Positions 6,665 to 25,875 of a stretch of DNA of 64,000 nucleotides are shown here, in pieces; positions within the stretch are counted from its first letter, which is position 1, and each line of letters opens with the position of its first letter. The stretch is taken from positions 220,011-284,010 of the forward strand of contig JACKGE010000001.1 in NCBI GenBank assembly GCA_020632155.1, written 5' to 3'. The translations under genes were made by a program, and so were the position numbers. This stretch comes from Candidatus Nomurabacteria bacterium. GTDB lineage: Bacteria > Patescibacteriota > Minisyncoccia > Phycocordibacterales > UBA918. The notes under the pieces were generated by a model. It made no database searches. It had not been told where the DNA came from and worked only from the letters and a program-made list of their open reading frames with translations.

Positions 6665-9052
6665 ATGGCCAAGAAACAAGACAGCAAAACCCTTGTCCTC
6701 CTCGATGCACACGCAATCTTGCATCGGGCCTTTCACGCGCTGCCAGATTTCTCATCACCTACCGGCGAGCCAACTGGTGCTCTCTATGGTGTGGTCGCGA
6801 TGCTGCTGAAGATAATTGAGGACCTCAAGCCCGATTACATCGTAGCTTGTTTTGATTTACCAGAGCCAACGTATCGCCATGAAGCCTTTGACGGCTACAA
6901 AGCCAAGCGCGAAAAGACCGATGATTCACTCGTCGCGCAAATTAACCGCTCGCGCGATATTTTTGCTGCGTTTCACATTCCAATTTATGAACACGTTGGG
7001 TTTGAAGCGGACGACATGCTCGGCACTATTGTCGAAATGACTAAAGGAGAAAGAGATTTGCATGTCATTATAGCTTCAGGTGATATGGACACGTTGCAGC
7101 TTGTCGATAAGAAAAAGGTGACCGTCTATACCCTGCGTAAAGGAATCAAAGACACTATTCTCTATGATGAGAAAACGGTGGTAGAACGATTCGGGTTCCC
7201 ACCAAAGCTCGTTGCTGACTATAAGGGCCTCCGCGGAGACACGAGCGACAACATCCCCGGTATTGTCGGCATTGGCGAGAAGATTGCCACCGAGCTTATC
7301 ACTACCTTCGGCTCCATTGAAGCCATATACAAAAAACTCAAGAAAGACGAACAGGCGTTTGTTGATGCCGGCTTTAAACCACGGGTCATTACGTTGCTTA
7401 AAGAAAACGAGGAGGAGGCGCAGTTCTCAAAAATGCTTGCCACCATTCGCCGTGATGCACCAATTGACTTTCAGGTACCCACACAATCATGGAAAGAGGC
7501 GGCGGACACTGAGGCTATACTGACGCTTTTTAGCGAGCTTGGTTTTAGAACCCTGAGTGCTCGCATTAAAAGTATTTTTGCGCTCAAGGATGAGGCTTCG
7601 ATAGACCAGATTACTAATCAGGTAAGTGACGAAGACGTGGCCAAGGCGGCAGTACTGCTCTGGCTACTTGAGTCTGATCGCACCAAACCGTCGTTTGATG
7701 ACATTGTCGATTACGGGCGTTCATACTTCGGTACCACTGACTTTAGTGAGATCGTAACAAAGCTCGAAGCTGCCGTGCGCGAACATGATTTGCTCCCAAT
7801 ATATGAATCCATTGAAGAGCCACTTCTGTTGGTACTGAGGGCGGTCAACCAAACAGGCATAACCCTTGATGTGGCGTATCTTAAAAAACTATCAAAAACC
7901 TTCCGCAGAGAGTTGTCTGGCTTGGAGAAGGACATCTACAGCCTTGCCGGTAGTGAATTTAATATCAACTCACCCAAACAACTCGGTGAGGTGCTCTACG
8001 ATACGCTTGGCCTTAAGCCCAAGAATCAAAAAAAGACCGCCACTGGTCAGCGCACCACACGCGAGGCGGAGCTGGTAAAGATGCAAGATGAACACCCGAT
8101 TATCGAGAAAATTCTCCGCTATCGCGAACTGCAAAAACTGGTTTCAACCTACATCGACAATTTGCCGGACATGGTCGGAGATGATGGCCGATTGCGCACA
8201 ACCTTCATTCAGACCGGTACTACGACTGGACGCATTGCGAGTAAGGACCCCAACTTGCAGAACATTCCAGTGCGCAGCGAAGAGGGTAGAGCCGTTCGTA
8301 AAGCGTTTGTGGCGTCCAAGGGTTACCAGCTGGTGTCTATCGATTACTCGCAGATTGAACTACGCATTGCCGCTATGTTATCGGGGGACACAAAACTCAT
8401 CGATATTTTTAAGCGCGGTGAAGATGTGCATACCGGTGTCGCAGTACGGGTCTTTGGTGTCAGTGCAGAGGAGGTCACACCGGAGATGCGTCGCCGCGCT
8501 AAGGTTATTAACTTTGGCATTCTCTACGGCATGGGCGTAAATGCCCTGCGGCAGAATCTTGGTGGTGATACCAGTCGCGAAGAGGCCCAGCAATTCTTAA
8601 ATGCGTACTTTAATACTTTTACCCGCCTCGCTGAATACCTCGAGGAGACCAAAGCCTTTGCCCGCGAGCATGGCTACACCACTACGATGTTTGGCCGACA
8701 CCGACACTTTGCTGGTATCACCTCAAGCGCTCCGTTCATTCGAGCCGCGGCCGAGCGTATGGCCATAAACGCACCAATCCAAGGTACGGAGGGAGATATT
8801 TTGCGTATCGCAATGATTAACATCGATACGTATATCAAAGAGCACAAACTGGAAGACACGGTCCGTATGTTGCTGCAGGTCCATGATGAGCTAGTCTTTG
8901 AAGTGAAAACAGAAGCGCTTGATGAGCAGATATTGCAGCTTCGGAACCTTATGGAAGGTGTATTTGCTGGGCAGCAGACGCGCGGGGTGCCAGTTGAGGT
9001 TGAGGTCAAAGTTGGTGATAATTGGGCTGACTTACAAAAGTGGACGCAGTAG
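6665..9052 (+). CDS. polA: DNA polymerase I
   Basis: N-terminal 5'-3' exonuclease (FEN) domain. Pol A motifs RRxAKxINFGILYG and QVHDELVFE. At 795 aa the 3'-5' exonuclease domain is reduced or absent (Taq-like). Confidence 0.9.
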   Translation: MAKKQDSKTLVLLDAHAILHRAFHALPDFSSPTGEPTGALYGVVAMLLKIIEDLKPDYIVACFDLPEPTYRHEAFDGYKAKREKTDDSLVAQINRSRDIFAAFHIPIYEHVGFEADDMLGTIVEMTKGERDLHVIIASGDMDTLQLVDKKKVTVYTLRKGIKDTILYDEKTVVERFGFPPKLVADYKGLRGDTSDNIPGIVGIGEKIATELITTFGSIEAIYKKLKKDEQAFVDAGFKPRVITLLKENEEEAQFSKMLATIRRDAPIDFQVPTQSWKEAADTEAILTLFSELGFRTLSARIKSIFALKDEASIDQITNQVSDEDVAKAAVLLWLLESDRTKPSFDDIVDYGRSYFGTTDFSEIVTKLEAAVREHDLLPIYESIEEPLLLVLRAVNQTGITLDVAYLKKLSKTFRRELSGLEKDIYSLAGSEFNINSPKQLGEVLYDTLGLKPKNQKKTATGQRTTREAELVKMQDEHPIIEKILRYRELQKLVSTYIDNLPDMVGDDGRLRTTFIQTGTTTGRIASKDPNLQNIPVRSEEGRAVRKAFVASKGYQLVSIDYSQIELRIAAMLSGDTKLIDIFKRGEDVHTGVAVRVFGVSAEEVTPEMRRRAKVINFGILYGMGVNALRQNLGGDTSREEAQQFLNAYFNTFTRLAEYLEETKAFAREHGYTTTMFGRHRHFAGITSSAPFIRAAAERMAINAPIQGTEGDILRIAMINIDTYIKEHKLEDTVRMLLQVHDELVFEVKTEALDEQILQLRNLMEGVFAGQQTRGVPVEVEVKVGDNWADLQKWTQ

Positions 9053-10386: not shown

Positions 10387-10459
10387 CGCCTGTAGCTCAG
10401 TTGGTAGAGCAGCGGCCTTTTAAGCCGACGGTTCGGAGGTTCGAGCCCTCCCAGGCGGA
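10387..10459 (+). tRNA. tRNA-Lys (anticodon TTT)
   Basis: Cloverleaf folded by hand. Acceptor CCGCCTG/CAGGCGG, D-arm GCTCAGTTGGTAGAGC, anticodon loop CTTTTAA, T-arm GGAGGTTCGAGCCCTCC. No encoded CCA. Confidence 0.8.
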
Positions 10460-10460
10460 C

Positions 10461-11291
10461 ATGAAGTCCTTCAAACAACAATGTATTGAGTTGCGAAAGA
10501 AGGACCATACCCTGAATGAAATAGTACAAATTACTGGTCGAAGTAAAACGACAGTGTACTTTCATATTAGGAACATTCCTCTAAGCAAACAAAAGCGAAA
10601 AAAAATAAGTGAAGCGACCCGATGGCGTGCCCTTCGAGTTGCTGCTGCTCGCAAAGGAAAAGCCTTGCGACCGTTCAAGCCATTTCAAAGCTGGACACCC
10701 GAACTCGTTCTATTAGTTTCCCACCTTATGTTTGACGGGGAAATAACCAAATCAAAGTGTCGTTACCATAATAGAAGTGCGGCCCTGATAAAAAGGGTGG
10801 AGGACTTAATGCAGCTTGTGTACGATTACAAGGGAACAAAAAATACCGATACTACAAGCGGTGTTGTTACCGTAAGTTTCCATAACGTAGAACTTGAAAC
10901 ATTTTTGAAAAGTAAATCAAAAGAACTGCTAAAAAACATTCATGTTTTTTCGAGATCTAAACAGACAGAATTCCTCCGCGCATTTTTTGATGACGAAGGA
11001 TGCATGGACGTACGTTTGAACAAAAGCCTGCGTCGTATTCGTGGTTATCAAAACGACCAAGAGATTCTTAAACTCGTAAAACTGCTCCTAAAAAACTTTG
11101 ATATTGAATCAAAACTCCGTAAACCTAATGAGGTTGTAATTTCTGGTAAGGAAAATCTACGGAAGTTTCAAAAGGAAATAAATTTCTCTAAAGGGGTTAG
11201 ACTAAATCCTAATCGGACGAATAGTATTTGGAAAAAAGATATCGAAAAAAGGGAGCTGTTAGATATTGCTATTAGATCGTACCAGATATAA
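10461..11291 (+). CDS. HTH-containing LAGLIDADG-type homing endonuclease-like protein
   Basis: ATG is immediately 3' of tRNA-Lys (the ORF-track TTG at 10401 would read through the tRNA). N-terminal HTH (LNEIVQITGRSKTTVYFHI). Two LAGLIDADG-like motifs (LVSHLMFDGEI and FLRAFFDDEGCMD). Confidence 0.5.
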   Translation: MKSFKQQCIELRKKDHTLNEIVQITGRSKTTVYFHIRNIPLSKQKRKKISEATRWRALRVAAARKGKALRPFKPFQSWTPELVLLVSHLMFDGEITKSKCRYHNRSAALIKRVEDLMQLVYDYKGTKNTDTTSGVVTVSFHNVELETFLKSKSKELLKNIHVFSRSKQTEFLRAFFDDEGCMDVRLNKSLRRIRGYQNDQEILKLVKLLLKNFDIESKLRKPNEVVISGKENLRKFQKEINFSKGVRLNPNRTNSIWKKDIEKRELLDIAIRSYQI

Positions 11292-12239: not shown

Positions 12240-12518
12240 TTGAAAAATATGGAATACGTTATAGAAGATTCAAAAGAAGGCTACTTTGATGTATACCAGC
12301 ACCAAAACGGCAAGAAGTACATTGTTTTAGAAGGCCTTGATCCAAGGCAAGTACACGAACAGGGGAAAATAGAGCAGTTCACTCGAGCTCATTACAACGA
12401 ATTTGCATCAGCCTACTGGTTATTGCTCTTCATGACGATGATGTACCTCCTTTGTACATACATTATTTCACCTCTTTGGTATCGAGTGCAGAGTCCCCAT
12501 CACGTTTCAGGGCAATGA
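12240..12518 (+). CDS. small hypothetical protein with C-terminal hydrophobic helix
   Basis: ORF only. Overlaps the 3' end of the convergent 12463-14193 gene by about 55 nt. Confidence 0.25.
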   Translation: MKNMEYVIEDSKEGYFDVYQHQNGKKYIVLEGLDPRQVHEQGKIEQFTRAHYNEFASAYWLLLFMTMMYLLCTYIISPLWYRVQSPHHVSGQ

Positions 12519-14193
12519 TCTCATTGGCATAGGTTGGAAGAAAATAGGTATCGGTTGTTTTATTGTACACAACGGTATTGGTGATGCGTTCCACAGCTTG
12601 GAAATATCCTAGGTGAGTGCCGGTGCGTGGTTCAAGTTCGTGCAAACGAGCGGCATTGGTTCCAACGTACAAACGGCCATTGATAACAGTCGGACTCGAA
12701 AAGATACGTGTTCCATCAACGAGTACATCAAATAGTAGAGACAAAGAGTCGAGATTGATAGCTCGAACGCGTTTGTCAGCAGCAGTAAAGTAAACAGTAT
12801 CTTGGTATATGTATGGGGTAGAGAATATGCCGAATTCACATTTATGGTGATGAACTAAATGTCCCGTTTTGCGATCCAAAATGTACAAAAATCCATCTAT
12901 TGCGCCAAATATTATGTAGTCGTGTTTTTGAGAGTATGTGAAACTTTCTTTTATGTCCCCATTACTGTAACCAATATGACCTGTCTCAGGTACGAAGTCA
13001 GCGGCACCGAAAGTAGTAAATTTCCAAAGCACATAACCGGTACGGGCATCATGAAGCCTCACCACTCCATCGTTGGAACCAATGACCACTTGCTTGTGCT
13101 CAGCAATATAGTGGGGAGAGCAATGAGTCATAGCCATGTGAGTACGGTCAATCCATTTAGGCTCGCCACTCGCTACATCAAGAGCAATAATGCCACCACG
13201 TTTATTTATCAACCCAAACTCAAGTCCAATAAAAACTAACCCAAGCTCTTGCGACACAGCAGGGGATGATCCTACCCAGTCAGCTTCAAAGCATATCCAC
13301 TTGACCGCTCCAGTATGTTTATCCAGACAGTACACATTTCCATCGTAGCTGCCAAATATGACCGTATTTTTATATAGTGCTGGGTTAGAGAAAATCGCTT
13401 TCTTTCTTTGTACACTCCCGACTTGATATTTCCAGGCTACCGAACCATCCGCTTGATTAATGGCCCAAAATGTCCGATTGTCCGAACCGAAGTATATCTT
13501 ACTGTCGTCAATCACTGGTTGTGATTTGTTAACTACCCATTCCAAACTTGGTTTTTCACTGCGGAATCCCCATAGGGTACTGAAAGGCATGGCGATAGAT
13601 TCAGGTACTGTTTTGAGGCGCGTTTGGGCTTCGTCGCCAAGACTGTCAGCAAACTCATCGAGCGTAAATAATGACCGCACTTTTATTCCTCTCTGGTAAA
13701 AGCGCTTGTAGTAGGACTCATCTTGGTATCTGAGTATTGCCCAAACGGTATCGACAGTGTACCCATAATACTCTAGTACTTCTATTTGTCGCCAAAAGGT
13801 ATTGCCAGAGTTTATAACATCGTCAACAAGAATGATCTTTTTGTGTTCCTCAAGGGAGCCTTCTATCATTCGGGTCATTCCAGTCTTTTTTCTAGACTTT
13901 CGTATAAAGACAGCGTTACTGTCGGCGTGTCCTTGGGCGTAAAACTTGTTCATTAAAGATGTGGCGAGAGGTACGCCAGCTATCTCCTGTGCACAAATTT
14001 GAAACGGGTACTCAGTGTGAAACTGTTCATAAAATATGCTAGCGATGATATCAGCAGCTTTGCCGTTCATTAAGATCTCTCGAAAATTGAATGTCCATGC
14101 ACTGGGATCAGTTTGCATGGCTAATTGACCGTTCGTGTTTTTGAATATCACGTGATCTTTAATGATATTTCTTAGTGTTTCCAAGTCACTCAT
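12463..14193 (-). CDS. phosphoribosyltransferase domain fused to PQQ-like beta-propeller repeats
   Basis: N-terminal type I PRTase PRPP loop (KIILVDDVINSGNTF). C-terminal repeated YxGSxDGxxYxxDxxTGxxxW blades. Confidence 0.55.
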   Translation of the reverse strand: MSDLETLRNIIKDHVIFKNTNGQLAMQTDPSAWTFNFREILMNGKAADIIASIFYEQFHTEYPFQICAQEIAGVPLATSLMNKFYAQGHADSNAVFIRKSRKKTGMTRMIEGSLEEHKKIILVDDVINSGNTFWRQIEVLEYYGYTVDTVWAILRYQDESYYKRFYQRGIKVRSLFTLDEFADSLGDEAQTRLKTVPESIAMPFSTLWGFRSEKPSLEWVVNKSQPVIDDSKIYFGSDNRTFWAINQADGSVAWKYQVGSVQRKKAIFSNPALYKNTVIFGSYDGNVYCLDKHTGAVKWICFEADWVGSSPAVSQELGLVFIGLEFGLINKRGGIIALDVASGEPKWIDRTHMAMTHCSPHYIAEHKQVVIGSNDGVVRLHDARTGYVLWKFTTFGAADFVPETGHIGYSNGDIKESFTYSQKHDYIIFGAIDGFLYILDRKTGHLVHHHKCEFGIFSTPYIYQDTVYFTAADKRVRAINLDSLSLLFDVLVDGTRIFSSPTVINGRLYVGTNAARLHELEPRTGTHLGYFQAVERITNTVVYNKTTDTYFLPTYANEIIALKRDGDSALDTKEVK

Positions 14194-14325: not shown

Positions 14326-15621
14326 ATGGTTGCTCTTAAAAAGTTATTGTTAGCCACGGGTCTTCTTTTGTTCGTGTTTATTCTTGCTGTAGTAGCTTGG
14401 TATTACTATTACTCGGTTCAAAAGTCACCCCCTACCTCCATTAACAATAAACTGTATTACTCTAAGGTAGCGGAAGACATATTTGTCGCTGTGGAGAGTT
14501 TTAGAAACGATGGTGCTACTGATGAAGAATTCTTGCGTTTCACCGAAGAGCAAGTAAGACAGTTAGATATGGACACACTGTATCCAATAGATCGCGCTTG
14601 GATGGAGCTCTTACTGGCTAGAGCTAAAGAAAAGATAGACCGCGATGCTGCTCTCCTAGGCTATGCAAAAGTTTATAACAAACCCGAATATGAACAGTTG
14701 TGGACTGTTAGGGGCAGTGCTTTAGCCTCAGCCATGTTGTACGCAACTGAAGTTGGCTCACCCCGCTTGAGCTTAGCGGAAGCCAAAGAATTAATCTTTA
14801 AACCGGATTTGTTTGGTCGTGCAGTAGGGATTGACTCAATAGACGAACTGAATCAAATAGAGACTGAGGAGGAACTTAGGTTATTGGTAGGCATTGGATT
14901 AGAAAAAGCAAGCCCTAACATTTTGTCTAAAGCTCGTGAGATGAGACTCGAAGTGGAGAGCCTCTTGCTTCAGTCTGGGACTATTTTAGAAAGATTGTAT
15001 AATAGTAATGATTCTGTCGAATTTACCTCAACTGAGGCCACGTCTCATCTCAACGAACACTTAGAACTTCATGCACAATACGATAGTATCAAGGAGCGAG
15101 CTGACGCACTAAATGCCGCAATACCAATTGTTATTTCCGACCGAAGCATATACTCATCTGAGGTACTTTACACACTAAACTATTTACAGCGTCTCTACAC
15201 CCAGCTGTTGTTTGTCGGATATGATGTGATGCCGTCCATACTTAACATGCATGAGTACTTGTCCGTTTACATCAATTTACATGGTAATGAACATGAGTTT
15301 GCTTTAGAAAGAACAAATATTATTCGAGCCAGCTCGGACTATCGCTTAGTGTGTGCGTTGATACTAGTGAACCAACAAGAAGGTGGAGATACGAACAAAC
15401 TTTCGGCTGAGAATGTTCTATTGAAGAGCCTTTACGATCTTTCGGAAGATGAACTCAGAGCTAACGGCTCGTTGCTTATTGACGCCGCCAAGAGGCCATA
15501 TTATCCTTGTCACCAAGCCTTTTTGACTCTTGGCAGAGAAAACCAAAGATTTGCTGATTTTTTAGTAAAGAATGTCGGAGGTTGGTCGTATGAACAATTT
15601 ACTTCGCCTAAAACCAATTAA
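14326..15621 (+). CDS. TOMM-cluster partner protein A1 (N-terminal TM anchor; paralog of 16068-17384)
   Basis: One N-terminal TM helix. Conserved blocks shared with its paralog: SALASAMLYATEVGSP, ILYTLNYLQRLYTQ, DAAKRPY.PC. The stop lies 10 nt before the precursor peptide. Confidence 0.6.
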   Translation: MVALKKLLLATGLLLFVFILAVVAWYYYYSVQKSPPTSINNKLYYSKVAEDIFVAVESFRNDGATDEEFLRFTEEQVRQLDMDTLYPIDRAWMELLLARAKEKIDRDAALLGYAKVYNKPEYEQLWTVRGSALASAMLYATEVGSPRLSLAEAKELIFKPDLFGRAVGIDSIDELNQIETEEELRLLVGIGLEKASPNILSKAREMRLEVESLLLQSGTILERLYNSNDSVEFTSTEATSHLNEHLELHAQYDSIKERADALNAAIPIVISDRSIYSSEVLYTLNYLQRLYTQLLFVGYDVMPSILNMHEYLSVYINLHGNEHEFALERTNIIRASSDYRLVCALILVNQQEGGDTNKLSAENVLLKSLYDLSEDELRANGSLLIDAAKRPYYPCHQAFLTLGRENQRFADFLVKNVGGWSYEQFTSPKTN

Positions 15622-15631
15622 TGCCTAGATT

Positions 15632-15955
15632 ATGATAAAAAGAAAGACCAAAAAATTTTTATATATACTTAGTGCACTAGTTAGCGTAGTGTTTGGTTAT
15701 ACCATCGGCAAAGATCATGCCGATTATACAAACTTCACGGCCGGCGACGTTTTTTTCAAGGAAGCCCAGGCTGATGTCCCACCACCTCCTTCGTGTGGAG
15801 GGGACACATATAGCTGTGGCGGCGGTGATGATGATGGTGGCTGCGGTGGCTGCGGCTGTGGTTGCGGCGGCGGTGATGATCATGGGGGCTGTGCTTGTAG
15901 TTGTGGTGCACCAGACTGTGGTCAGTGTGGGTCACCAGGCGATGAGCTTTATTAG
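15632..15955 (+). CDS. RiPP precursor peptide 1 (microcin B17-like Gly/Cys-rich core)
   Basis: 107 aa. N-terminal K-rich segment plus hydrophobic leader, then conserved GKDHADYTNFT, then a core rich in G/C/D/S (11 Cys, runs such as CGGCGCGCGGG) ending in GDELY. Confidence 0.6.
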   Translation: MIKRKTKKFLYILSALVSVVFGYTIGKDHADYTNFTAGDVFFKEAQADVPPPPSCGGDTYSCGGGDDDGGCGGCGCGCGGGDDHGGCACSCGAPDCGQCGSPGDELY

Positions 15956-16067
15956 TTCAGTCTCCCTAAACACTCGAAGTGAGATTTACACATGTTGTTC
16001 CGTAGTCCCGATGATTACTATCATTGTTGTGACTAAGTGTACGTGTTAGCATGTCTATGGTCTGATT

Positions 16068-17384
16068 ATGCGCAAGGTTAATAACTTTTTACGTCTCCTC
16101 CTACTCGTCCTTGCTTTATTGATGGTAGTGGTGATTGTGGGTATCGGGTTACTCTTTTTAAAAACACAATCAAACCCTCCGTCAGTTAATAACAAAGAAT
16201 TATATCTCAGTGATACAATCGCCACACTCCTTCAGTCTGCTCAAGAAAAACAAAATGAAGGCGTACCACCTGAAGACATCTTAGCCACTGTCGAGGCTCA
16301 CCTTGCTGAAATTGATGTTCAAGCATTAGCGCCAGTGGATCAGGCTTGGATTGCTCTAGAATGGGCTAGAGTTCACGAACCGATTGATAGAGATATGGCG
16401 CTACTTGAATATGCACGAATATACAATGAACCATCATACGAGTCGTTCATGCCGGTTCGTAATAGTGCTCTGGCTTCAGCCATGTTGTACGCAACCGAAG
16501 TAGGTTCACCGAAGTTATCTTTTATAGATGCCAAACGATTTATCTTCGCACCCGATCTATTTGGCCATGTAGTTGGCATTGATACACAACAAGCCCTCGA
16601 CGCTTTAAAGAGTGATGAAGACCTGCGATTGTTAGCTAGTATCGGGCTGAATCTTTCCAGTGGAGGTATGTTATCGTCCGCCCGTGAGTATCGATTGCAA
16701 GTTGAAAGCTTATTGTTGAAGTCAGAGCATTTGTTGTATCAACTGTACGAAAAAGATACGTCGATTGATTTCATTCCGATTGTTGCACAGCAAAGGTTAG
16801 GCCAAGACTCCTCAATACAAAAACAATTCGAAGAAATCTTTGCTCAAGCAAATAGTATTTTGACGGATCTTCCAGCAAATATCGCACGTCGTAACGCATA
16901 TGTTTCAGACATTCTATATACTCTCAACTATTTACAGCGCCTGTACACGCAGTTTGTTTTTATAGGATATGATGCCCTCCCGCCACTTGATACCTCTAGA
17001 CAGCTACTCAATTCGTACGTAATTACTCATCAGGACGACCATTCCTTTGCTGCACAGCGATCAAATGTCATCTTGGCTAGTTCAAATTATCGCTATGCTT
17101 GTGCATTGGTGATTCGAGACGAATTGGACGGTCAAGAACAATCTGTAGACAGCCGGATCATACGTTCGTTACTCGACGACATACGACAACTTTCAGAAAC
17201 AGACATTGAGGCAGGCAAATCACTTTTAGCTGACGCTGCTAAGAGACCATATTTGCCTTGTTCATACGCCTCAGTGGTAATCGGGACCGTTTATGACCCC
17301 TCCTTTGCTGATTTTCTGGTCGATGAAGTAGGGACATGGAGTCGTGATCAGTTTATGACCCCTAACGATGGTGCTAGTATATAA
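16068..17384 (+). CDS. TOMM-cluster partner protein A2 (paralog of 14326-15621)
   Basis: Same architecture and the same conserved blocks as A1, at about 45-50% identity by eye. Translationally coupled to peptide 2. Confidence 0.6.
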   Translation: MRKVNNFLRLLLLVLALLMVVVIVGIGLLFLKTQSNPPSVNNKELYLSDTIATLLQSAQEKQNEGVPPEDILATVEAHLAEIDVQALAPVDQAWIALEWARVHEPIDRDMALLEYARIYNEPSYESFMPVRNSALASAMLYATEVGSPKLSFIDAKRFIFAPDLFGHVVGIDTQQALDALKSDEDLRLLASIGLNLSSGGMLSSAREYRLQVESLLLKSEHLLYQLYEKDTSIDFIPIVAQQRLGQDSSIQKQFEEIFAQANSILTDLPANIARRNAYVSDILYTLNYLQRLYTQFVFIGYDALPPLDTSRQLLNSYVITHQDDHSFAAQRSNVILASSNYRYACALVIRDELDGQEQSVDSRIIRSLLDDIRQLSETDIEAGKSLLADAAKRPYLPCSYASVVIGTVYDPSFADFLVDEVGTWSRDQFMTPNDGASI

Positions 17385-17391
17385 TTAAAGT

Positions 17392-17670
17392 ATGTTGCAA
17401 AGAAAAACAAAACAAGCCATGTATCTTGTGGGTGCCCTTGTGGGGATCGTGTTTGGATACGTGGTAGGTAAAGATCATGCAAATTACGCCAGCTTTACTC
17501 CAGAAGACCTCTTTTCGAGTGAGGCGAGTGCAGACACACCAAGTTGTGGTGGTGGAGATGCCAGTTGCACACCAGGTGATGACGATAGTTGTGCTGGTGG
17601 CGGTTGTAGTTGTGGTGACGCATGTGGCGGTTGTAGTTGTGGTGGAGGACAGGGTGACGAGCTCTACTAA
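17392..17670 (+). CDS. RiPP precursor peptide 2 (Gly/Cys-rich core)
   Basis: 92 aa. Leader homologous to peptide 1 (GYVVGKDHANYASFT). Core SCGGGDASCTPGDDDSCAGGGCSCGDACGGCSCGGGQGDELY, 8 Cys. Confidence 0.6.
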   Translation: MLQRKTKQAMYLVGALVGIVFGYVVGKDHANYASFTPEDLFSSEASADTPSCGGGDASCTPGDDDSCAGGGCSCGDACGGCSCGGGQGDELY

Positions 17671-17690
17671 TAACTCGTTCCAACCGAGGT

Positions 17691-18917
17691 ATGTTTTTTA
17701 AGGAAGAGTTTAGGTTAAGTTTTATTCTGCAAGTGGCCTTGGCAGCCCTAGTTTTTTGTTATTTCATGGTCTTTGCTGATTGGGTGTCTCGATCAGCCAT
17801 AACACTTGATTCGGTCATTAATCATGCAGCACTGTGCCCAACTTATTTCCAGTCGTGTGAAAGTCTATACTTTTTGCGTGCACTCCCTGATGGATATTCC
17901 CAGAGCATGTGGTACATGCTCTTGTTTGGGAGTCTTATAGTAAGCGCTTACTTTCTCATCTGCCGCCGGTGGAGTGAAGCCCAGTGGATACTTTTGCCCG
18001 CATATGTGTGGCATACGCTAAATGTATTTGTACTTACGTATTACGGTAGTGGAAATTATGAATACTACGTCTTTGTTTTCGGCACGATTCTATTCTTTTT
18101 TCCACATAAAGAATTCTTTTTAAAGCTGACCCTAGTTCTGTTCTACGTCATGTCTACTGCCGCTAAAATCCATCCAGCATGGATAGCAGGAGGATACTTC
18201 ACGAACATGAGCTTAGGCCTCCCTGTCTTTCCTGAGTGGTCAATACCACTATTTACTAATCTTGTTATTGTGATGGAAATGGTCGGGGCATGGTTTTTGC
18301 TTTCAAAACATCCCCTCGTGCAGCGCACGGTCCTTTTATTTTTTGTAATCTTTCACCTCTATTCCGGTGTGTTGGTTGAATACCGCTATCCTGCTACGGT
18401 GTTGCCCATGCTTCTTATTGCCTTTGGTCCATGGTACCGTTATCAAAAGCCGCCATTAGATAAGAAGTCTGTCATTGGTTGGACGTTCATCGGCTTACTG
18501 TGTATTTTGCAACTTACTCCAAAAATGGTTGTGGGTGACGAAAAACTCACTCTTGAGGCGAACAAGTACGGCCTCTATATGTTCGAGTCCAATCATCAGT
18601 GCATCGTATCGGCTGAGTATATCTACACCGACGGACACGTAGACACATATATGGAAGTACATAACAATCCTCGCTTCCGCTGTGACCCATACATGTTTTG
18701 GTATCGATTCAACCATGTGTGTGAACAGGACCCCCGTCTTTCTCGCATCGCTTGGACCTTTGACCACTCCATTAATGGCGACCCCTTCTTACGTATTGTT
18801 GACACTGATAACGCCTGCGACCTAGAATACAAACCTTTCTCCCATAATGAATGGATCAAGACGTATACTGACAACCCTGAAGTGATCGGTTGGCCGGCAC
18901 AAAATGATTATCACTAG
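17691..18917 (+). CDS. HTTM-domain (vitamin K-dependent gamma-carboxylase-like) multi-pass membrane protein
   Basis: About 9 TM helices in the first 280 aa plus a soluble C-terminal domain. The segment LRALPDGYSQSMWYMLLFGSL resembles the VKGC/HTTM block [24 protein letters not shown]. Confidence 0.45.
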   Translation: MFFKEEFRLSFILQVALAALVFCYFMVFADWVSRSAITLDSVINHAALCPTYFQSCESLYFLRALPDGYSQSMWYMLLFGSLIVSAYFLICRRWSEAQWILLPAYVWHTLNVFVLTYYGSGNYEYYVFVFGTILFFFPHKEFFLKLTLVLFYVMSTAAKIHPAWIAGGYFTNMSLGLPVFPEWSIPLFTNLVIVMEMVGAWFLLSKHPLVQRTVLLFFVIFHLYSGVLVEYRYPATVLPMLLIAFGPWYRYQKPPLDKKSVIGWTFIGLLCILQLTPKMVVGDEKLTLEANKYGLYMFESNHQCIVSAEYIYTDGHVDTYMEVHNNPRFRCDPYMFWYRFNHVCEQDPRLSRIAWTFDHSINGDPFLRIVDTDNACDLEYKPFSHNEWIKTYTDNPEVIGWPAQNDYH

Positions 18918-20061
18918 AAGCAAAAGACATACGATGCTATGCGCCTTTGTGTGTGGACTTTTTTTTGCGCTTAGTGGTAGTTATCTATACACACTCATTG
19001 CTAATAGAGCCGTTACACCCGAAGTGCGTCCGGTTGTGTATGATAGAGAGCAACTGGCTAACGGAACGATCTACACAACCCTTGGTAATCAACAGGAGTT
19101 CAATCAAAAGTATGCTCACCAGCGGCCATATTTATTGGAGCTGGCCGCAGATGGCACTTTGGTTTGGTCTGAGTCGACCGAGAGTACTCCATTTCATTAT
19201 CAACGACTACCTAATGGTACCAAGGTATACGCCCTACATGATATTGACAGCAAGCGGTGGTCTGCACACTGGCATGTAATAGAACCTGATGGCTCAAAAC
19301 ACATTGTTCAAAGCCAAGAAATTGACCATACTGACTTTCATTTTTTATTACCGACTCCAACTGGAGAGTTTTGGGTACCAGGGTATAGATTGCAAGAATT
19401 AGAAGGACAAAAGGTAGAGTCTTTATGGCTTGAGTTGCAGAATCAGGCAGGTGAGGTGATGCAGTCATGGGATAGTTTGTCACATGTGAGTTTAGATTCA
19501 ACGCAGGCCACAGAAACACGAAAATATTGGCTGGAGCACGATATCAATGATTATTTTCACGGTAACAGCGCCACTTACGCACTCGATGGTGCACTTCTCA
19601 TCTCGGCTCGCAATACCAACCAAATATACAAGGTAGACCCCCAAACCGGTGAGGTAGTTTGGAGGTTGGGAGGGAAGGACAGCGATTTCAATATAATAGA
19701 TGATCCTCTCGGTGGTTTTTCTCATCAACATACCGTTAGCCAGTTAGGAAACGGGAATATACTTCTTTTTGACAACGGCAATCTACACCAACCGCAACAG
19801 TCTCGCGTTGTAGAGTACCAGCTTGATGAAGAGGCGATGACCGCTACGTATGTTTGGTCGTATACCGAAGCTGGTCGGTTTTCGTACGCGGCTGGCTCAG
19901 CTCAGCGGCTACCAAACGGCAATACGTTCATTAGTTGGGGGCTCGAGGTTGATGAGTCAAGTGGTAAAGCCAAAATAACGGAGGTCTCTCCGTTGGGAGA
20001 GAGGGTGCTGGAGATTTTTTTTGCTCCTGAGGTATTTTTCTACGACGCCTTCAAGCTATAG
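18904..20061 (+). CDS. arylsulfotransferase (ASST)-like beta-propeller protein
   Basis: N-terminal signal/anchor. ASST-family blocks FHGNSATYALDGALLISARNTNQIYKVD..GEVVW and HQHT....GNGNILLFDNGN. Confidence 0.55.
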   Translation: MIITRSKRHTMLCAFVCGLFFALSGSYLYTLIANRAVTPEVRPVVYDREQLANGTIYTTLGNQQEFNQKYAHQRPYLLELAADGTLVWSESTESTPFHYQRLPNGTKVYALHDIDSKRWSAHWHVIEPDGSKHIVQSQEIDHTDFHFLLPTPTGEFWVPGYRLQELEGQKVESLWLELQNQAGEVMQSWDSLSHVSLDSTQATETRKYWLEHDINDYFHGNSATYALDGALLISARNTNQIYKVDPQTGEVVWRLGGKDSDFNIIDDPLGGFSHQHTVSQLGNGNILLFDNGNLHQPQQSRVVEYQLDEEAMTATYVWSYTEAGRFSYAAGSAQRLPNGNTFISWGLEVDESSGKAKITEVSPLGERVLEIFFAPEVFFYDAFKL

Positions 20062-20092
20062 AAAAACCGCCGACTACTGCCGACGGTTTTTG
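20060..20092. terminator. bidirectional terminator-like hairpin
   Basis: AAAAACCG...CGGTTTTT stem between convergent genes. Confidence 0.5.
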
Positions 20093-20116
20093 ATTGGACG
20101 GAGGCGAAGACCCGAC

Positions 20117-20440
20117 CTACTTGAAGACTTGGACTTGGTCGTCCTTCTCTCCATTTTTGTCTCGGGTCGAGAAGGTCACCTTATACTTCCCGCCGCCGAT
20201 ATCCTTGATGTTGATGGCGGCGCGGCCACCGGGCCAGCGTATCCGCCAACGGCCGTCCTTGACGCGGTCGGCCGTGTAGCACCGCCCCTTGTGGCAGTAG
20301 ATCGCTTTCTGGGCAGACACGACTCGCACCGAGGCGGCGCTGCCGTCGTTCCAGCGGCCGGAAGCTTTCTCACCGGCGGTTGCGGGAGCGGCTGCCAAGG
20401 CGGCAGCGATGGCAGCGACAACAAAGAACGCACGTTTCAT
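20117..20440 (-). CDS. GC-rich small secreted protein (hypothetical)
   Basis: MKRAFFVVAAIAAALAAAPATAGE signal peptide. About 63% GC. Sits between the ASST-like gene and sagB-like. Confidence 0.55.
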   Translation of the reverse strand: MKRAFFVVAAIAAALAAAPATAGEKASGRWNDGSAASVRVVSAQKAIYCHKGRCYTADRVKDGRWRIRWPGGRAAINIKDIGGGKYKVTFSTRDKNGEKDDQVQVFK

Positions 20441-20507
20441 GGGACTCTCCTTTCCCTATGTTGTGATGGTCAATTTATAACACAAATATATAATTTTTGC
20501 AACACGC

Positions 20508-21212
20508 TTAGTTTGAAAGAGTGAAAGTGTAGATTGGCTGTTCATCAAAAGGATCGAGCTCCAATACGTCGGTAATCTTTTCATCACGAAAGCCACCAAT
20601 AGGGCAGAAATGTAGGTTGGCCGTCTCAGCCGCTAAAGACAGATTTTGTCCAATATGACCTGCTTCTAGTAAGCAGAGATCATAAGCAAAATCAGAATAT
20701 TTTGGCGTATTTCGACTCCAGCGTGCGGTGAGAATTATGACTGCGAGTGCCTCGGTTTCGATGTCGGCTTTAAAGAGATCGTTAGTCGTTAGCTTTAGTG
20801 GCAACTCCCATAGTCTTTCCAAGACGTGCTCTTTGACTTGGTAATGGTACAGTGTTGGCCGAGCATCCGTCTCAAGCCGCGTACAAAGGTAGCATTCAAC
20901 GGGGTAAAAGGAACCGCCTGATGGGTATGGTCGGTGGTGATCCTTATGTTCTCGTAAGGCGAGACCAAACAGTGTTCCCAGTTGTTGGGGAGTTGGGTAG
21001 ATAGATGTGTCCGACCGGCGTCTTGACCGCCTCTTTTGTAGTAGTTCAACAAATGTATCAGTTGAAACGGGGTCTGGTAGTGGAATTTTTAGAAAACGGG
21101 GGTAGGTCTTACTCTGCTGTATTGCTGGCCAGAGTGATTCTGACGTGGCTGTTTTGCCTTTGTTAGTTCGGCGAATATATTGATGGATTCTAAGTGGCGT
21201 AAGGTTAAGCAT
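20508..21212 (-). CDS. SagB-type (TOMM) FMN-dependent dehydrogenase
   Basis: RRSRRR, YPSGGSFYPVECY and LLEAGHIGQNL..C.IGGF blocks typical of the SagB/ThcOx nitroreductase-fold family. The start is 9 nt after the ycaO stop. Confidence 0.8.
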   Translation of the reverse strand: MLNLTPLRIHQYIRRTNKGKTATSESLWPAIQQSKTYPRFLKIPLPDPVSTDTFVELLQKRRSRRRSDTSIYPTPQQLGTLFGLALREHKDHHRPYPSGGSFYPVECYLCTRLETDARPTLYHYQVKEHVLERLWELPLKLTTNDLFKADIETEALAVIILTARWSRNTPKYSDFAYDLCLLEAGHIGQNLSLAAETANLHFCPIGGFRDEKITDVLELDPFDEQPIYTFTLSN

Positions 21213-21220
21213 ATTGGTAT

Positions 21221-22669
21221 TTAAGCAAAAGGATGTGGGTAGGCTGTAAAGGGTGTAGGTAAAGATTGGTAACCAAATTTTTCTGGTACAGCGGATAGAC
21301 GTTTTCCCGTTACGTATGGTACACGTTCGTTTTGATGCATGGGTTGTAAATCAGGCATGACCACCATTTCAATATTCCAAGGAGACACGTTTCTTTTTGT
21401 TGAACCAACTGAGACTGAACATAGTTCGTAATTATTGTTCCTAGCCCAATTAACTATTCTTCGTAAATGATCACTCTCGGAGTCAGCCTCCCAGTTCTCG
21501 CTTGGGTTTGGTTCACTGGAGTCTGTTCCAGAAAGGAAGTACATATTACTAACTTGTTGAGGCTCAGCCCAGTAGTCCAATCGTTCAAGGTGGTTCAACT
21601 TCGACCCGTCTCTTTTTACAGATTGCTTGCCAGTACGAGACTGCCGATTCCTAATGGTTTGGCGTATGCGCAACGCTTCGAGCAGGGCTCCCTCAACGGC
21701 CGTACTCAAGCTATTATGCGCTTTAAGTCCTACCGTAAAAGCAGGAACATGTTCATGAGTGTCTTTGAGACTGGCACAAATTGCGTACGTTGGCGCATCT
21801 GTTACCATTCGAATTGCTGAAGGTTCAAGCTGGTATTTCTTGCACAACTCGAGTAGGCGTTGCAATTTTGGTGAAGTGTGAGCCAGATCAAGAAGGTTAA
21901 GTCTTGGTAACTTGAGTTGGTTGAGCCAAAGTATCATATAGGCATCACGTTCAATCACTTCTAGTGCTCCAGCAAGAACAGCTCCCTCACGTGTTGGCCA
22001 TGTTGCAAGACCGGTCGTAATCGGCATAAGGAGTATCGGCTCACGAGCGAGTTTTTTGTCACGGCAGCTATTGACCAGCTGGGCGGGCAAGTACAGCTGC
22101 TTCCCAGTGGTCCATGACTGACCCAAGGTCCAAGTGAATTTACTATCTGGAGCAAAAGAAAGCCGTCCATATTTTTCTCGTTGCTCTTTTGAGACGCCAG
22201 TTATTTGGTCCGGTGAGATGAACGAAATGGATTTTTTTTGCATCTCGTTTATGCTTGCGTACATTGGTTTTTTAAAATAGGAAGTGTCTTCAAACCATAA
22301 ATATCTTTCCACTGCTTCAGCCAAGGCAGCGATAAAGGCATCATAATCGCTGTCTATGGACATACCGCCGGCCCGTTGATTATCATGTGTGCCGCATGTC
22401 ACTGCCCAGTGGTATTGCAAGGGCTCATCATGGTAGCCAGTGATGGGACGATAGTTTTTTATTAGTTTGGCCTCAATCAGTTGTTGTGCTATGGAGAATA
22501 AAGGAATGAGATCTGTTCTTCCATAGGGTATATAGTTAGCATCGACTGTAACAGACGCATTAAAGTATTTTTCAATAAATGTTATCAAGGCTAACTTCGC
22601 ATCATCCGAAAATCCTTGCCTTCGTTTCCTAATAATCTCCGTTAACAGTAACGTATCGTGCATGACCAA
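21221..22669 (-). CDS. YcaO-domain cyclodehydratase (TOMM D protein)
   Basis: AEAVERY, ITTGLATW and ALEVIERDA motifs (ATP/Mg binding, ExxERD). C-terminus YPHPFA, like the PxPxP tail of azoline-forming YcaOs. Confidence 0.85.
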   Translation of the reverse strand: MVMHDTLLLTEIIRKRRQGFSDDAKLALITFIEKYFNASVTVDANYIPYGRTDLIPLFSIAQQLIEAKLIKNYRPITGYHDEPLQYHWAVTCGTHDNQRAGGMSIDSDYDAFIAALAEAVERYLWFEDTSYFKKPMYASINEMQKKSISFISPDQITGVSKEQREKYGRLSFAPDSKFTWTLGQSWTTGKQLYLPAQLVNSCRDKKLAREPILLMPITTGLATWPTREGAVLAGALEVIERDAYMILWLNQLKLPRLNLLDLAHTSPKLQRLLELCKKYQLEPSAIRMVTDAPTYAICASLKDTHEHVPAFTVGLKAHNSLSTAVEGALLEALRIRQTIRNRQSRTGKQSVKRDGSKLNHLERLDYWAEPQQVSNMYFLSGTDSSEPNPSENWEADSESDHLRRIVNWARNNNYELCSVSVGSTKRNVSPWNIEMVVMPDLQPMHQNERVPYVTGKRLSAVPEKFGYQSLPTPFTAYPHPFA

Positions 22670-22689: not shown

Positions 22690-23154
22690 TTGGGCCTACA
22701 AGATTCGGTGACAATTGGTAGTGACATGGCTACGCATGCTGGTTACAATGGTCTCTGTAGCATGAACAGACTTCCACCTTGTACGGTTTTATATCAAGGC
22801 AATTGTACCTTTTGTCGTTGGTGTATGAGACTGGTACTCAAAAACAGTCGAGAAGGGATGTTTACATTCATCCCGATTGAAAGTGAGGAGGGGAAGGCTC
22901 TCATTAAAGAGGGGTCTCTATCGATAAACCCTGAACATCCAGACAGTATTGCAGTATTAGTGTCTGACGAGAAGGTTTACTATAAATGGCAAGGTGGAGT
23001 AGAAATTGCTCGTCACACAACGTTTCCGTTTCGGTTGGTGTATTTTGTTGCGATGATGGTGCCGAGTTTTTTGGGAGATCGTATATATGACTGTATTGGT
23101 CGTCATCGGGCTCTGCTGTGTCGGTTGGTCCGATGTCGCCAAAGGCAGTCATAG
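22690..23154 (+). CDS. DCC-family (DUF393) thiol-disulfide oxidoreductase
   Basis: LYQGNCTFCRWC CxxC motif near the N-terminus and the downstream family pattern. The real start is probably the M of MNRLPPC at about 22762. Divergent from ycaO. Confidence 0.6.
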   Translation: MGLQDSVTIGSDMATHAGYNGLCSMNRLPPCTVLYQGNCTFCRWCMRLVLKNSREGMFTFIPIESEEGKALIKEGSLSINPEHPDSIAVLVSDEKVYYKWQGGVEIARHTTFPFRLVYFVAMMVPSFLGDRIYDCIGRHRALLCRLVRCRQRQS

Positions 23155-24060: not shown

Positions 24061-24192
24061 GGGGACCCCATTTGGTTGGTTTGATTCTGGCGATATTGCC
24101 GTTAGCTATACTACTACAAATAGGTAAAATGTCAACCTCAAAAAGGGCAGTTATACAATAACGTGATATTGGCTAGGCACAGAAAGGGTATA

Positions 24193-25875
24193 ATGAGGCC
24201 AATGAAAACGTATTTGGTATCCGTGCGCGACTTCATCTGGCGCCATCCGTTGTTGATAGCTCTTGGTGGGTTGGCGTTTGTCGCTCTCTATGTATGGAGC
24301 GAGAGTTTTGGTGTCGCAACTGGTTCGTGGCTGCCGGCAGTATTTGGCCTTGGCGGCCAAAGCGGTTCCCAGTCGGGTAGTTCTAGTTCATCAACTGGTG
24401 GCTATTCGACTTACTCAGGTAGTCGTGGAACCTATGGCGGCCGCATGACCCAAACTGAGTTTGGTGACTATGCTGAGAGAGACGGAGCCGATGTGTATCA
24501 TTATGATGGTTACTCAAAAGCGTATTATTCTGATGGCTCGACATCATCTTGGAGCAGTTCCAGCTCCTCCAGTCCATACTTATTGGTTTGGAACGGTAAG
24601 CGTTATCTGCATGAAAATGATTTCTTGTTTGGTAAGCCCACCACTGTATTTACTGATTATGCAGAAGGGTATACGGCGTACCGACGAGGTATTGGCGGTG
24701 ACTCGTATTTGGTACGCCTTCCAGTCGTGGAAGAAGACGGGAAACTTCGCTTCCAAATTCGAGAGATAGAACCAGAAGAGTCATTTATAGACCGATTTTG
24801 CTTACAGGCTATTGATTTACATCCTGACCAGATACCGATTGTCGACGGTTCGCTTGGCTGTGTACATGTATTTGACGCCAAGACAGCCAGCCTCGTAGCT
24901 GATCAAACCGTGCAACACTACCACCGTAATACAAACACCGTATCAGTTCAGACCTTTGCTGATAGTAAGGTACTGCGTGTACACGACCGCGGGGGTTCCA
25001 TGTTAGAGACTGGAGATGAAATCATCATTCAGATACCTCGAAAAGATCTGACCGAGGAAGCTTTGTATGTAGTGGTGGATTCCTACTTTAGAGATTGGAC
25101 ACTAGGTGAAACTGTACCCTTTTCATATCAAGATCGTCTCCTCATCTATTCTCGTGGTACGGCTCGTAAGTTGGCTACAACTGCCGCAGGGGTGAGTTTA
25201 CTCCTTGCCGGTATGGCAGTGACACAGACCGTGTCCGGTCACGCACTCCAGAATATCCTTGCTACTCCCTACGCCAATGCAGATGTTCCACCACCACCAC
25301 CGACGAGTGGTGGTGGAGGAGGAACAAGTTGTGGGGGTATGACAACGGCCTGTTCGTCAAAATCTCTAGAGGTGAGTGTGATGATTGGTGGCCGGCGTAT
25401 TTTGCTACAGACACTCTTTCCTCGACTGGTACAGGCTTCAAAAGAAGTGGTGTGTATACCAAAGGATCTTGTACAGAGTGTTGCAGACGAAGTCATTACA
25501 ATTTGCATTAAAGCTACCAAGCGCCACCAGGTCACGTTTGCCGGTGTTATGCAGGGGCAGGCAGTTTTAGCCGAACCGACCTTGTTAGGTAGACAGACAG
25601 TGGTACATACGCGGACAGGACAAGATGTGTCAGAGAAAATACGCCAAAAGAATGAAGACTTCCTCCATATTGTGCCAGGTGATACCTACGAGGTTACCGT
25701 GTCTGATATGCCTACTGTAGCGACTGGCCTACAGCGCCACATTCTTCTCAGTACCAATGGTTTTTATACGCGACTATCAGAAGCAACAAAGAGGCGCATC
25801 GGCGCTAATTGGTATCGTACATTAGCTCCTGAAGACAAAGCCATTTTGCGCAGCCTTAAACAAATAGGTGTTTAG
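24193..25875 (+). CDS. membrane-anchored hypothetical protein with Ser/Gly-rich linker
   Basis: ATG after an AAGGG RBS (the ORF-track GTG is at 24163). TM helix, a low-complexity GSQSGSSSSS stretch, and a PPPPPTSGGGGG linker. Confidence 0.45.
   Translation: MRPMKTYLVSVRDFIWRHPLLIALGGLAFVALYVWSESFGVATGSWLPAVFGLGGQSGSQSGSSSSSTGGYSTYSGSRGTYGGRMTQTEFGDYAERDGADVYHYDGYSKAYYSDGSTSSWSSSSSSSPYLLVWNGKRYLHENDFLFGKPTTVFTDYAEGYTAYRRGIGGDSYLVRLPVVEEDGKLRFQIREIEPEESFIDRFCLQAIDLHPDQIPIVDGSLGCVHVFDAKTASLVADQTVQHYHRNTNTVSVQTFADSKVLRVHDRGGSMLETGDEIIIQIPRKDLTEEALYVVVDSYFRDWTLGETVPFSYQDRLLIYSRGTARKLATTAAGVSLLLAGMAVTQTVSGHALQNILATPYANADVPPPPPTSGGGGGTSCGGMTTACSSKSLEVSVMIGGRRILLQTLFPRLVQASKEVVCIPKDLVQSVADEVITICIKATKRHQVTFAGVMQGQAVLAEPTLLGRQTVVHTRTGQDVSEKIRQKNEDFLHIVPGDTYEVTVSDMPTVATGLQRHILLSTNGFYTRLSEATKRRIGANWYRTLAPEDKAILRSLKQIGV

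Follow-up and report, generated by a model that had tools for sequence, protein, structure and literature searches.

A distant relative of the vitamin K-dependent carboxylase, indicated by structure prediction, in a conserved peptide-associated gene cassette of Patescibacteria

A stretch of 64,000 nucleotides (nt) from contig JACKGE010000001.1 of a Candidatus Nomurabacteria bacterium, hereafter the window, contains two adjoining genes. Gene A encodes a membrane protein, and gene B encodes a membrane-anchored beta-propeller of the ASST family (arylsulfotransferase-like, independent of 3'-phosphoadenosine 5'-phosphosulfate). The predicted structure of the gene A protein indicates a remote kinship with GGCX, the human vitamin K-dependent carboxylase, and standard domain searches fail to reveal it. 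In Patescibacteria, gene A forms the center of a conserved cassette, together with the small gene S92, a gene fusing a phosphoribosyltransferase (PRTase) domain to a beta-propeller, membrane-anchored peptides and usually a protein of the U43x/F390 family; it is also present in some predatory or symbiotic proteobacteria. Gene B is a lineage-specific add-on and not a general component of the gene A system. The object of interest is the cassette of gene A, S92 and peptides, in which S92 would be a new small partner subunit, rather than the pair of gene A and ASST on which the initial annotation of this DNA had focused.

The AlphaFold (AF2) model of the gene A protein, built on 35 homologues, reached a predicted local distance difference test (pLDDT) score of 83.6 and a predicted template modeling (pTM) score of 0.85. 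Nine long helices lie between residues 11 and 279, in agreement with the about nine transmembrane (TM) helices counted earlier, and the predicted structure combines a membrane domain with a lumenal beta domain as in GGCX. When the model was searched against the PDB by Foldseek, the top 15 matches were all human GGCX (E 4.9e-9 to 1.7e-3, probability 1.0), with a query-normalised TM-score of 0.57-0.65 for the first 14 of them; the first match to another protein had an E value of 0.46. Profile-profile alignment by hhalign placed residues 42-391 of gene A colinear with GGCX 92-504 over 322 columns. The human GGCX query sequence was 100% identical to the PDB chains and its profile was a 14-species alignment, which is shallow because the GGCX homologues among the matches listed were all from vertebrates. 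The block LRALPDGYSQSMWYMLLFGSL (residues 62-82), described as VKGC-like from the sequence in the initial annotation, falls in register with GGCX 107-127 in the profile alignment. When the family was aligned to the single GGCX sequence, the lumenal segment alone was aligned (E 0.011). The strongest local hhalign segment lies in the lumenal domain, and so does the weak match to PF22777, the VKGC lumenal-domain model, found in one of 35 gene A family members (E 0.087). The earlier naming of gene A as an HTTM/VKGC-like protein is thus backed by the fold and by the colinear alignment with a conserved catalytic lysine, and not by Pfam.

Residue conservation was counted in 191 gene A homologues at positions mapped onto GGCX by hhalign, and the roles of the GGCX residues were taken from PMC12589487 and PMC13486548. 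The following aligned residues are invariant in all 191 sequences: K159 (GGCX K218, the catalytic base), W164 (W223, quinone ring pocket), F221/H222 (F286/H287, F286 belonging to the quinone ring pocket), R330 (R436, Glu pocket) and Y152 (Y211, to which no role was given). E196 aligns with D263, the partner of K218, and is Glu in 147 and Gln in 44 of the homologues; the GGCX mutant D263E keeps 25% activity. S225, found in 190 of 191, takes the position of N290, which forms a hydrogen bond to the quinol. All members of the catalytic-base set (K218, D263 and N290) have therefore counterparts in gene A by alignment. In the Glu pocket, N122 (N159) is kept in 173/191 and Y296 (Y395) in 164/191. C49 and C344, present in 191/191 and 176/191 homologues, align with C99 and C450, which points to the same interdomain disulfide. 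The position of K217 is variable. Further family-invariant residues in the region of the GGCX 385-410 counterpart and lumenal domain include G282, D283, T287, E289, G294, M297, F298, N301, H302, Q303 and C304. Since the fold, the catalytic lysine and the disulfide cysteines were found by prediction and alignment, while sequence models failed to recognize the protein and its Glu pocket is ambiguous, gene A is classified as a new divergent branch of the VKGC superfamily and is not filed as a gamma-glutamyl carboxylase.

A total of 479 database homologues of gene A were found, one of which is 100% identical and named as a hypothetical protein of Candidatus Kaiserbacteria. Among 1.84 billion sequences, the family has 695 representatives (50%-identity clusters) at E<=1e-3, and 250 at E<=1e-30. 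The hosts are mostly Patescibacteria, including Kaiserbacteria, Paceibacteria, Nomurabacteria, Gracilibacteria and others; record titles also name Micavibrio, Rickettsiales, Caenarcanales and Pseudobdellovibrionaceae, which are host-dependent or predatory lineages.

For the analysis of gene neighborhoods, 79 loci were taken from species-representative genomes, contigs found by exact look-up were added, and the six-frame open reading frames (ORFs) were searched with hidden Markov models (HMMs) of the window proteins. Neighbors lying no more than 6 kb from a gene A homologue were counted in 80 non-redundant loci, 44 of which extend for 5 kb or more to each side. S92 was found in 50 of the 80 loci, the PRTase-propeller in 46, an anchored peptide in 37, the U43x/F390 family in 29, YcaO in 22, the F411 family in 20, SagB in 19 and DCC in 11. 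A recurring order, seen for instance in L027, L044, L051, L053, L055, L066 and L067, is the peptide gene on the minus strand followed by YcaO, SagB, gene A and the PRTase-propeller; in several of them S92 separates the last two genes. The PRTase-propeller gene is often transcribed divergently at about 60 nt from gene A, and the F390 family adjoins peptides in 26 loci. In most loci where it was matched, S92 lies 0-24 nt downstream of gene A, and in several just upstream, so that the gene which usually abuts or overlaps the 3' end of gene A is S92 and not ASST. Furthermore, S92 precedes gene A in a single fusion protein in the alphaproteobacterial loci L043, L057 and L073, and some of the database representatives are fusions as well. 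Because of this adjacency and these fusions, the best reading of S92, which has no match in Pfam, is that of a subunit in a two-subunit enzyme. In the window and its closest relative L001, S92 lies 4-5 kb upstream of gene A.

The anchored peptides share a common plan, in which a basic N-terminus, a hydrophobic helix and a linker of 15-30 residues are followed by the motif A-[HNSQ]-A-[DE]-[VAIT]-P and a low-complexity tail. These A-x-A-D-x-P peptides are a new precursor family. Most tails are rich in Gly and Asp, with 4-33 Asp versus 0-4 Glu in the last 45 residues. Richness in Cys and/or Ser is seen where YcaO and SagB occur; in loci that lack YcaO, several tails are entirely free of Cys, and some join YYSQ repeats to Asp/Gly-rich ends. 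The linkage of gene A to Cys-rich peptides, YcaO and DCC noted in the initial annotation does exist, but the trait shared by the peptides is the Gly/Asp-rich tail, and richness in Cys and Ser follows YcaO. No unanchored or previously unrecognized Gly/Asp-rich peptide was found in 42 peptide-less loci with translation table 11, although some of these genomes may use another code.

The peptide plan is also found inside a larger protein. A 570-aa protein encoded about 1 kb past DCC possesses an internal module composed of a hydrophobic helix, a linker and ANADVPPPPP, followed by TSGGGGGTSCGG. Its motif-plus-tail stretch, ANADVPPPPPTSGGGGGTSCGG, comes after the internal hydrophobic helix as in the small peptides. 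Homologues are present in L001, L014 and L075; the one in L014 has the exact motif (AHADTP) before a Gly-rich stretch, and the one in L001 has a TNADLP variant, recognized by eye only, before a YSQ/Gly-rich stretch. In both the window and L001, the module resembles the small peptide of its own genome.

GGCX was the sole significant structural match of gene A, and the two proteins share the order of membrane domain and lumenal domain as well as K218, W223, F286/H287, Y395, R436 and C99-C450. Their (candidate) substrates are also built alike, with a recognition or leader part before an acid-rich stretch. However, GGCX has 758 aa versus 408 aa in gene A, which lacks the large C-terminal region, the identity is about 15%, and the substrates of GGCX are rich in Glu, whereas the candidate substrates of gene A are rich in Asp and anchored in the membrane. 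The best functional precedent for gene A is MloH, a VKDC-like bacterial enzyme that carboxylates an aspartyl residue in the biosynthesis of malonomycin (Law et al. 2018, reported in PMC12186529, PMC12647623 and bioRxiv 10.64898/2026.08.19.745780). According to these accounts, MloH is a bacterial member of the VKGC superfamily with fused membrane and lumenal-like parts which acts on Asp; its substrate there is an intermediate of a polyketide synthase-nonribosomal peptide synthetase and not a ribosomal peptide. HTTM-DCC1 fusion proteins with a single-TM DUF5819 partner are predicted to form a complex that rebuilds the GGCX architecture (bioRxiv 10.64898/2026.08.19.745780). Both they and the window combine an HTTM-type enzyme, a DCC1-like protein and a single-TM partner, with DCC as a separate gene and S92 as the partner in the window. 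In contrast to gene A, which carries its own lumenal-type domain, the HTTM-DCC1 proteins are recognized by the Pfam HTTM model and have no fused lumenal domain, this being supplied by DUF5819; S92 differs from DUF5819 in its C-terminal TM helix and in the lack of a Pfam match.

Clusters of thiazole/oxazole-modified microcins (TOMMs), such as those of microcin B17 and streptolysin S, resemble the window by having YcaO and SagB beside precursors rich in Gly, Cys and Ser. They differ from it in that the YcaO of the window is below the TIGR03604 cutoff, the leaders of its peptides are signal-anchor-like, a VKGC-like enzyme is central, and related cassettes lack YcaO and SagB. In the literature searched, no paper was found that links HTTM/VKGC-like proteins with YcaO, with ribosome-made peptides that undergo post-translational modification (RiPPs) or with peptides of Patescibacteria. 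Vitamin K-dependent carboxylation has been viewed as essentially an animal modification with one bacterial small-molecule example, MloH. The gene A family, some 700 clusters when grouped at 50% identity, is invisible to Pfam, keeps the catalytic lysine and lies in cassettes with acid-rich anchored ribosomal peptides; it thus offers a candidate case in which VKGC-type chemistry on ribosomal peptides of bacteria can be tested.

The function that we propose, with confidence about evenly balanced, is that gene A performs a quinol-dependent VKGC-like modification of exported peptides, plausibly Asp carboxylation, with YcaO and SagB acting on the Cys/Ser-rich variants and ASST as a lineage add-on. 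The gene A protein would be a fusion of two domains, an HTTM-type membrane domain and a lumenal-type beta domain, joined by an equivalent of the C99-C450 disulfide. It would retain the residues needed to deprotonate and bind the quinol, with K159 in the place of K218, E196 of D263, S225 of N290, W164 of W223 and F221/H222 of F286/H287. By the positive-inside rule, an outward orientation is predicted for the peptide tails, for the gene A active site and for ASST. With a reduced quinone and O2, gene A would make a strong base and carboxylate acidic residues of the tails. Asp would be the likeliest target, because it is abundant in all tails where Glu is rare and because MloH carboxylates an aspartyl residue. 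The change of H160 to Tyr together with the deletion of GGCX 399-405 might denote a different substrate pocket; equally, it could denote that carboxylation was lost and an epoxidase or redox role left. On the Cys/Ser-rich tails, cytoplasmic YcaO and SagB would add azoles or azolines before export. DCC may be an optional thiol-redox helper, whose linkage mirrors the HTTM-DCC1 fusions, and ASST, at this one locus, may sulfate phenolic groups such as the Tyr in the GDELY ending of each of the two local peptides. The initial annotation had hinted at a carboxylation or redox step requiring quinone chemistry; this is a reasonable reading.

The wider claim, that a VKGC-like enzyme and its small subunit constitute a new class of ribosomal peptide modification by carboxylating Asp (or Glu) of exported, anchored Gly/Asp-rich peptides in the ultra-small bacteria of the candidate phyla radiation (CPR), seems rather unlikely to us at this stage. 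If true, it would mean that bacteria possess 'Gla-like' polyanionic surface tails binding metal or calcium, optionally with azoles from YcaO/SagB and sulfation by ASST, and that the enzyme depends on a cofactor scavenged from the host, because the organisms carrying it probably cannot make quinones. The presence of the gene A family in minimal host-dependent cells raises the question of which quinone they would use.

A number of observations weigh against the proposed carboxylation. To our knowledge, Patescibacteria are generally without quinone synthesis, and many of them are anaerobes, whereas the GGCX chemistry requires O2. No gene for quinone biosynthesis or VKOR was found in the window. 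On the side of homology, Pfam and NCBIfam searches gave zero matches for gene A even at E<=10, so that the match to the HTTM model expected in the initial annotation was not obtained, and PF05090 (HTTM) matched 0 of 35 family members at E<=1. The gene A family profile had no match among PDB sequences, and its hhalign alignment with GGCX is statistically weak (E 0.011, low probability). Because no sequence HMM recognizes the HTTM domain and hhalign is weak, the homology rests on predicted structure together with motif agreement. At the active site, the position of GGCX H160, which assists Glu carboxylation (PMC12589487, PMC13486548), is never His in the family (Tyr in 171 and Phe in 19 of 191), and N158 is replaced by Gly. 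Moreover, the seven residues 399-405, including M401/M402 of the CO2/quinone wall, are deleted. Owing to these three changes within a Glu-binding and carboxylation set that otherwise keeps N159, Y395 and R436, the carboxylase chemistry may be altered or lost. As for the cassette, peptides accompany gene A only in the 37 loci counted above, and in the proteobacterial loci neither an anchored peptide nor a PRTase-propeller gene was found. The topology of the 570-aa protein may put its motif in the cytoplasm, the proposal leaves the contribution of the PRTase-propeller unexplained, and the link of ASST to gene A rests on one locus.

The same changes at the active site would fit a different role, to which we assign a low probability, namely that gene A is an epoxidase-only or redox module that oxidizes quinol and, together with DCC, handles the disulfides or thiols of exported Cys-rich peptides, or uses the base otherwise, for example in epimerisation. 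K159, E196, S225, W164 and F221/H222 are kept, yet H160 and N158 are substituted and the segment with M401/M402 is missing. DCC adjoins here and in the 11 of 80 loci, HTTM-DCC fusions exist, and the VKGC-like proteins of giant viruses which keep K218 are read as epoxidases. The VKGC orthologue of Leptospira is reported to have epoxidase activity and no carboxylase activity. However, a counterpart of GGCX 385-410, equivalents of Y395 and R436 and the entire lumenal domain are all retained in gene A, unlike in the viral epoxidases, and this region is rich in family-invariant residues; many cassettes also have Cys-free peptides and lack DCC. Still less probable, in our judgment, is a non-redox factor for maturation or export, which would process the leader at A-x-A|D or act in translocation and would be comparable to SdpB, with the conserved Lys being structural. 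In Bacillus subtilis, processing of the SdpC toxin requires SdpB, an HTTM-like protein. Such a role would agree with the anchored peptides adjoining gene A and their conserved boundary motif A-x-A-[D/E]-x-P, and with the fact that no dedicated protease or ABC exporter was seen in the cassette. The invariant residues of gene A, however, map onto the quinol and catalytic residues of GGCX and not onto structural positions alone, and the analogy with SdpB does not make this explanation mechanistically distinct.

Whether gene B belongs to the system was considered from its identity, its position and its homologues. Gene B is a genuine member of the ASST family with, as judged by alignment, intact active-site residues. 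It matches PF05935 (2.7e-26) and PF14269 (3.4e-26), both over gathering scores, which bears out the close agreement with ASST blocks seen before. Its profile, made from 33 homologues out of 2930 in the database, matched the PDB entries 9kf4/9kf6 'Sulfotransferase' at 1e-57 and E. coli AssT (3elq) at 1.9e-20. AssT H252, H356, N358, R374 and H436 align to H146, H219, N221, R236 and H276 of gene B, and all five positions are invariant or at least 90% conserved in the 33 homologues. In AssT we take His436 to be catalytic and the other four to be active-site residues (roles presumably as in Malojcic et al. 2008). Gene B has a single N-terminal helix, within whose predicted span both of its cysteines fall, and is probably an anchored extracytoplasmic enzyme. 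It shares with AssT these residues and a probable extracytoplasmic location, but its match to the 9kf4 type (E 1e-57) is closer than its match to AssT (E 2e-20), and it has 385 aa compared with 571 aa in AssT, and has a membrane anchor without an AssT-type disulfide, where AssT has a cleaved signal peptide and a disulfide.

Gene A and gene B are both real genes. With the first ATG used, the end of gene A and the start of gene B have 14 nt (18904-18917) in common, as had been described for this pair. However, the database entry P0121 of gene B (375 aa, 100% identical) begins at Met11 (ATG at 18934), and with this start the overlap is replaced by a gap of 16 nt. The longer form is favored, since it gives a basic N-terminus (MIITRSKRHT) before the membrane helix, which matches the homologues (MKK.., MRK..). 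The two genes are operonic whichever start applies, and form the 3' end of a run of six plus-strand genes (14326-20061) spaced by -14 to 112 nt. A scan of the window for promoters and terminators performed no better than chance.

In spite of this arrangement, we lean slightly toward the view that the adjacency of gene A and ASST is incidental, resulting from a local rearrangement, that gene B has an unrelated role in the envelope or in phenol sulfation, and that the functional unit is only the cassette of gene A, S92 and peptides. The recurrence of the pair proposed in the initial annotation was not borne out, since an ASST HMM run over the window and L001-L083 matched the window alone, that is 1 of the 80 non-redundant gene A loci. 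Where the window has ASST directly behind gene A, L001 has a second gene A paralogue. The closest homologues of gene B (41-51% identity) come from Kaiserbacteria-like contigs, where they overlap or abut the 3' end of a different polytopic membrane protein of about 325 aa beside an LNT_N gene, and gene A, S92, peptide and PRTase-propeller genes were all absent within 8 kb of them. The window keeps the same wider neighborhood as these homologues, with SpoU, Mur ligase, RuvA and LNT_N. On the other side stand the overlap of stop and start codons on the same strand at the end of the tight six-gene run, the membrane anchor of gene B along with peptide tails predicted outside the cell by the positive-inside rule, and the GDELY ending of both local peptides, an acidic Tyr context that suits O-sulfation.

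The protein of about 325 aa is conserved and without a Pfam match, and the window has no copy of its gene. The possibility that it is a shortened gene A was rejected, as it has zero similarity to gene A. The ASST-like gene overlaps the end of this protein by 4 nt in L084 and L086 (protein at 7021-8004 and 7030-8004, respectively), and starts within 3 nt after it in L087 (1711-2691). The ASST-type propellers of this lineage seem to be habitually paired with a membrane protein.

Coordinates of the gene pair and neighboring features in the window
Feature	Position	Strand	Description	Evidence
S92	12240..12518	+	92 aa, tail-anchored; N-terminal ~55-aa domain and C-terminal TM helix; ~5 kb upstream of gene A	
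PRTase-propeller	12463..14193	-	PRTase fused to a PQQ-like beta-propeller, 576 aa, without TM helix	PQQ_2 6.8e-28, Pribosyltran 7e-6, TIGR00336 3.5e-20
U431	14326..15621	+	Paralogue of U438, upstream of first peptide gene	Sequence comparison
Peptide, 107 aa	15632..15955	+	TM anchor, AQADVP, Cys/Gly/Asp-rich tail ending in GDELY	Sequence
U438	16068..17384	+	N-terminal TM helix and ~400-aa all-alpha domain, just upstream of peptide gene	AF2 model
Peptide, 92 aa	17392..17670	+	Basic N-terminus, TM helix, linker, ASADTP, Cys/Gly/Asp-rich tail ending in GDELY	Sequence
Gene A	17691..18917	+	Membrane protein, 408 aa, ATG start	
Gene B	18904..20061	+	Membrane-anchored ASST-family beta-propeller, 385 aa, ATG start	
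SagB	20508..21212	-	SagB-type dehydrogenase using flavin mononucleotide, 234 aa	TIGR03605 5.8e-33 (above cutoff), PF00881 1.3e-18
YcaO	21221..22669	-	YcaO cyclodehydratase-like, 482 aa	PF02624 7.3e-40
DCC	22690..23154	+	DCC1-like thiol-disulfide oxidoreductase family	PF04134 4e-15
570-aa protein	24163..25875	+	Internal peptide module	Translation; no Pfam match

The neighbors named in the initial annotation, i.e. two Cys/Gly-rich peptides, YcaO, a SagB-type dehydrogenase and a DCC1-like protein, are all present in the window. The setting is of the azole (TOMM) type, in which YcaO and SagB stand beside peptides with 8-9 Cys in the last 45 residues; the YcaO scored 180 bits with TIGR03604, under the cutoff of 219 bits. 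The propeller fusion is taken to be cytoplasmic, and its PRTase domain is orotate-PRTase-like, with an intact phosphoribosyl pyrophosphate (PRPP) loop, ILVDDVINSGNT, in its sequence.

Upstream of gene A on the plus strand are two paralogous modules, each composed of a U43x protein of about 435 aa followed by a small peptide. U438 and U431 have 44% identity, and each is remotely homologous to the F390 family (hhalign E 3e-5, probability 73%). U438 has no match in Pfam. Its AF2 model, made from a 2-sequence alignment, is all-alpha and poor (pLDDT 66), and a fold search against the PDB gave generic helical-repeat matches but no significant one. The neighbor families F411 and F413 were considered as relatives of U43x/F390 and rejected, as no relation was detectable. 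F411 proteins have an N-terminal TM helix and a helical part of about 400 aa without a Pfam match. Tandem copies of F411 lie near the gene A cassettes of L006, L021, L033, L041, L044, L061, L068 and L079, and F411 is also found near the ASST homologue in L086 (11484-15028).

A GC-rich islet is located between ASST and SagB (20050-20500), with GC about 0.60 compared with about 0.45 around it, and may be a recent insertion. It contains a minus-strand ORF of 107 aa (20117-20440) with a signal-peptide-like, Ala-rich N-terminus and no Pfam match. At the other end of the region, just upstream of the SpoU methylase gene, a plus-strand ORF of 296 aa (10401-11291) encodes a LAGLIDADG_3 homing-endonuclease-like domain (8.5e-13).

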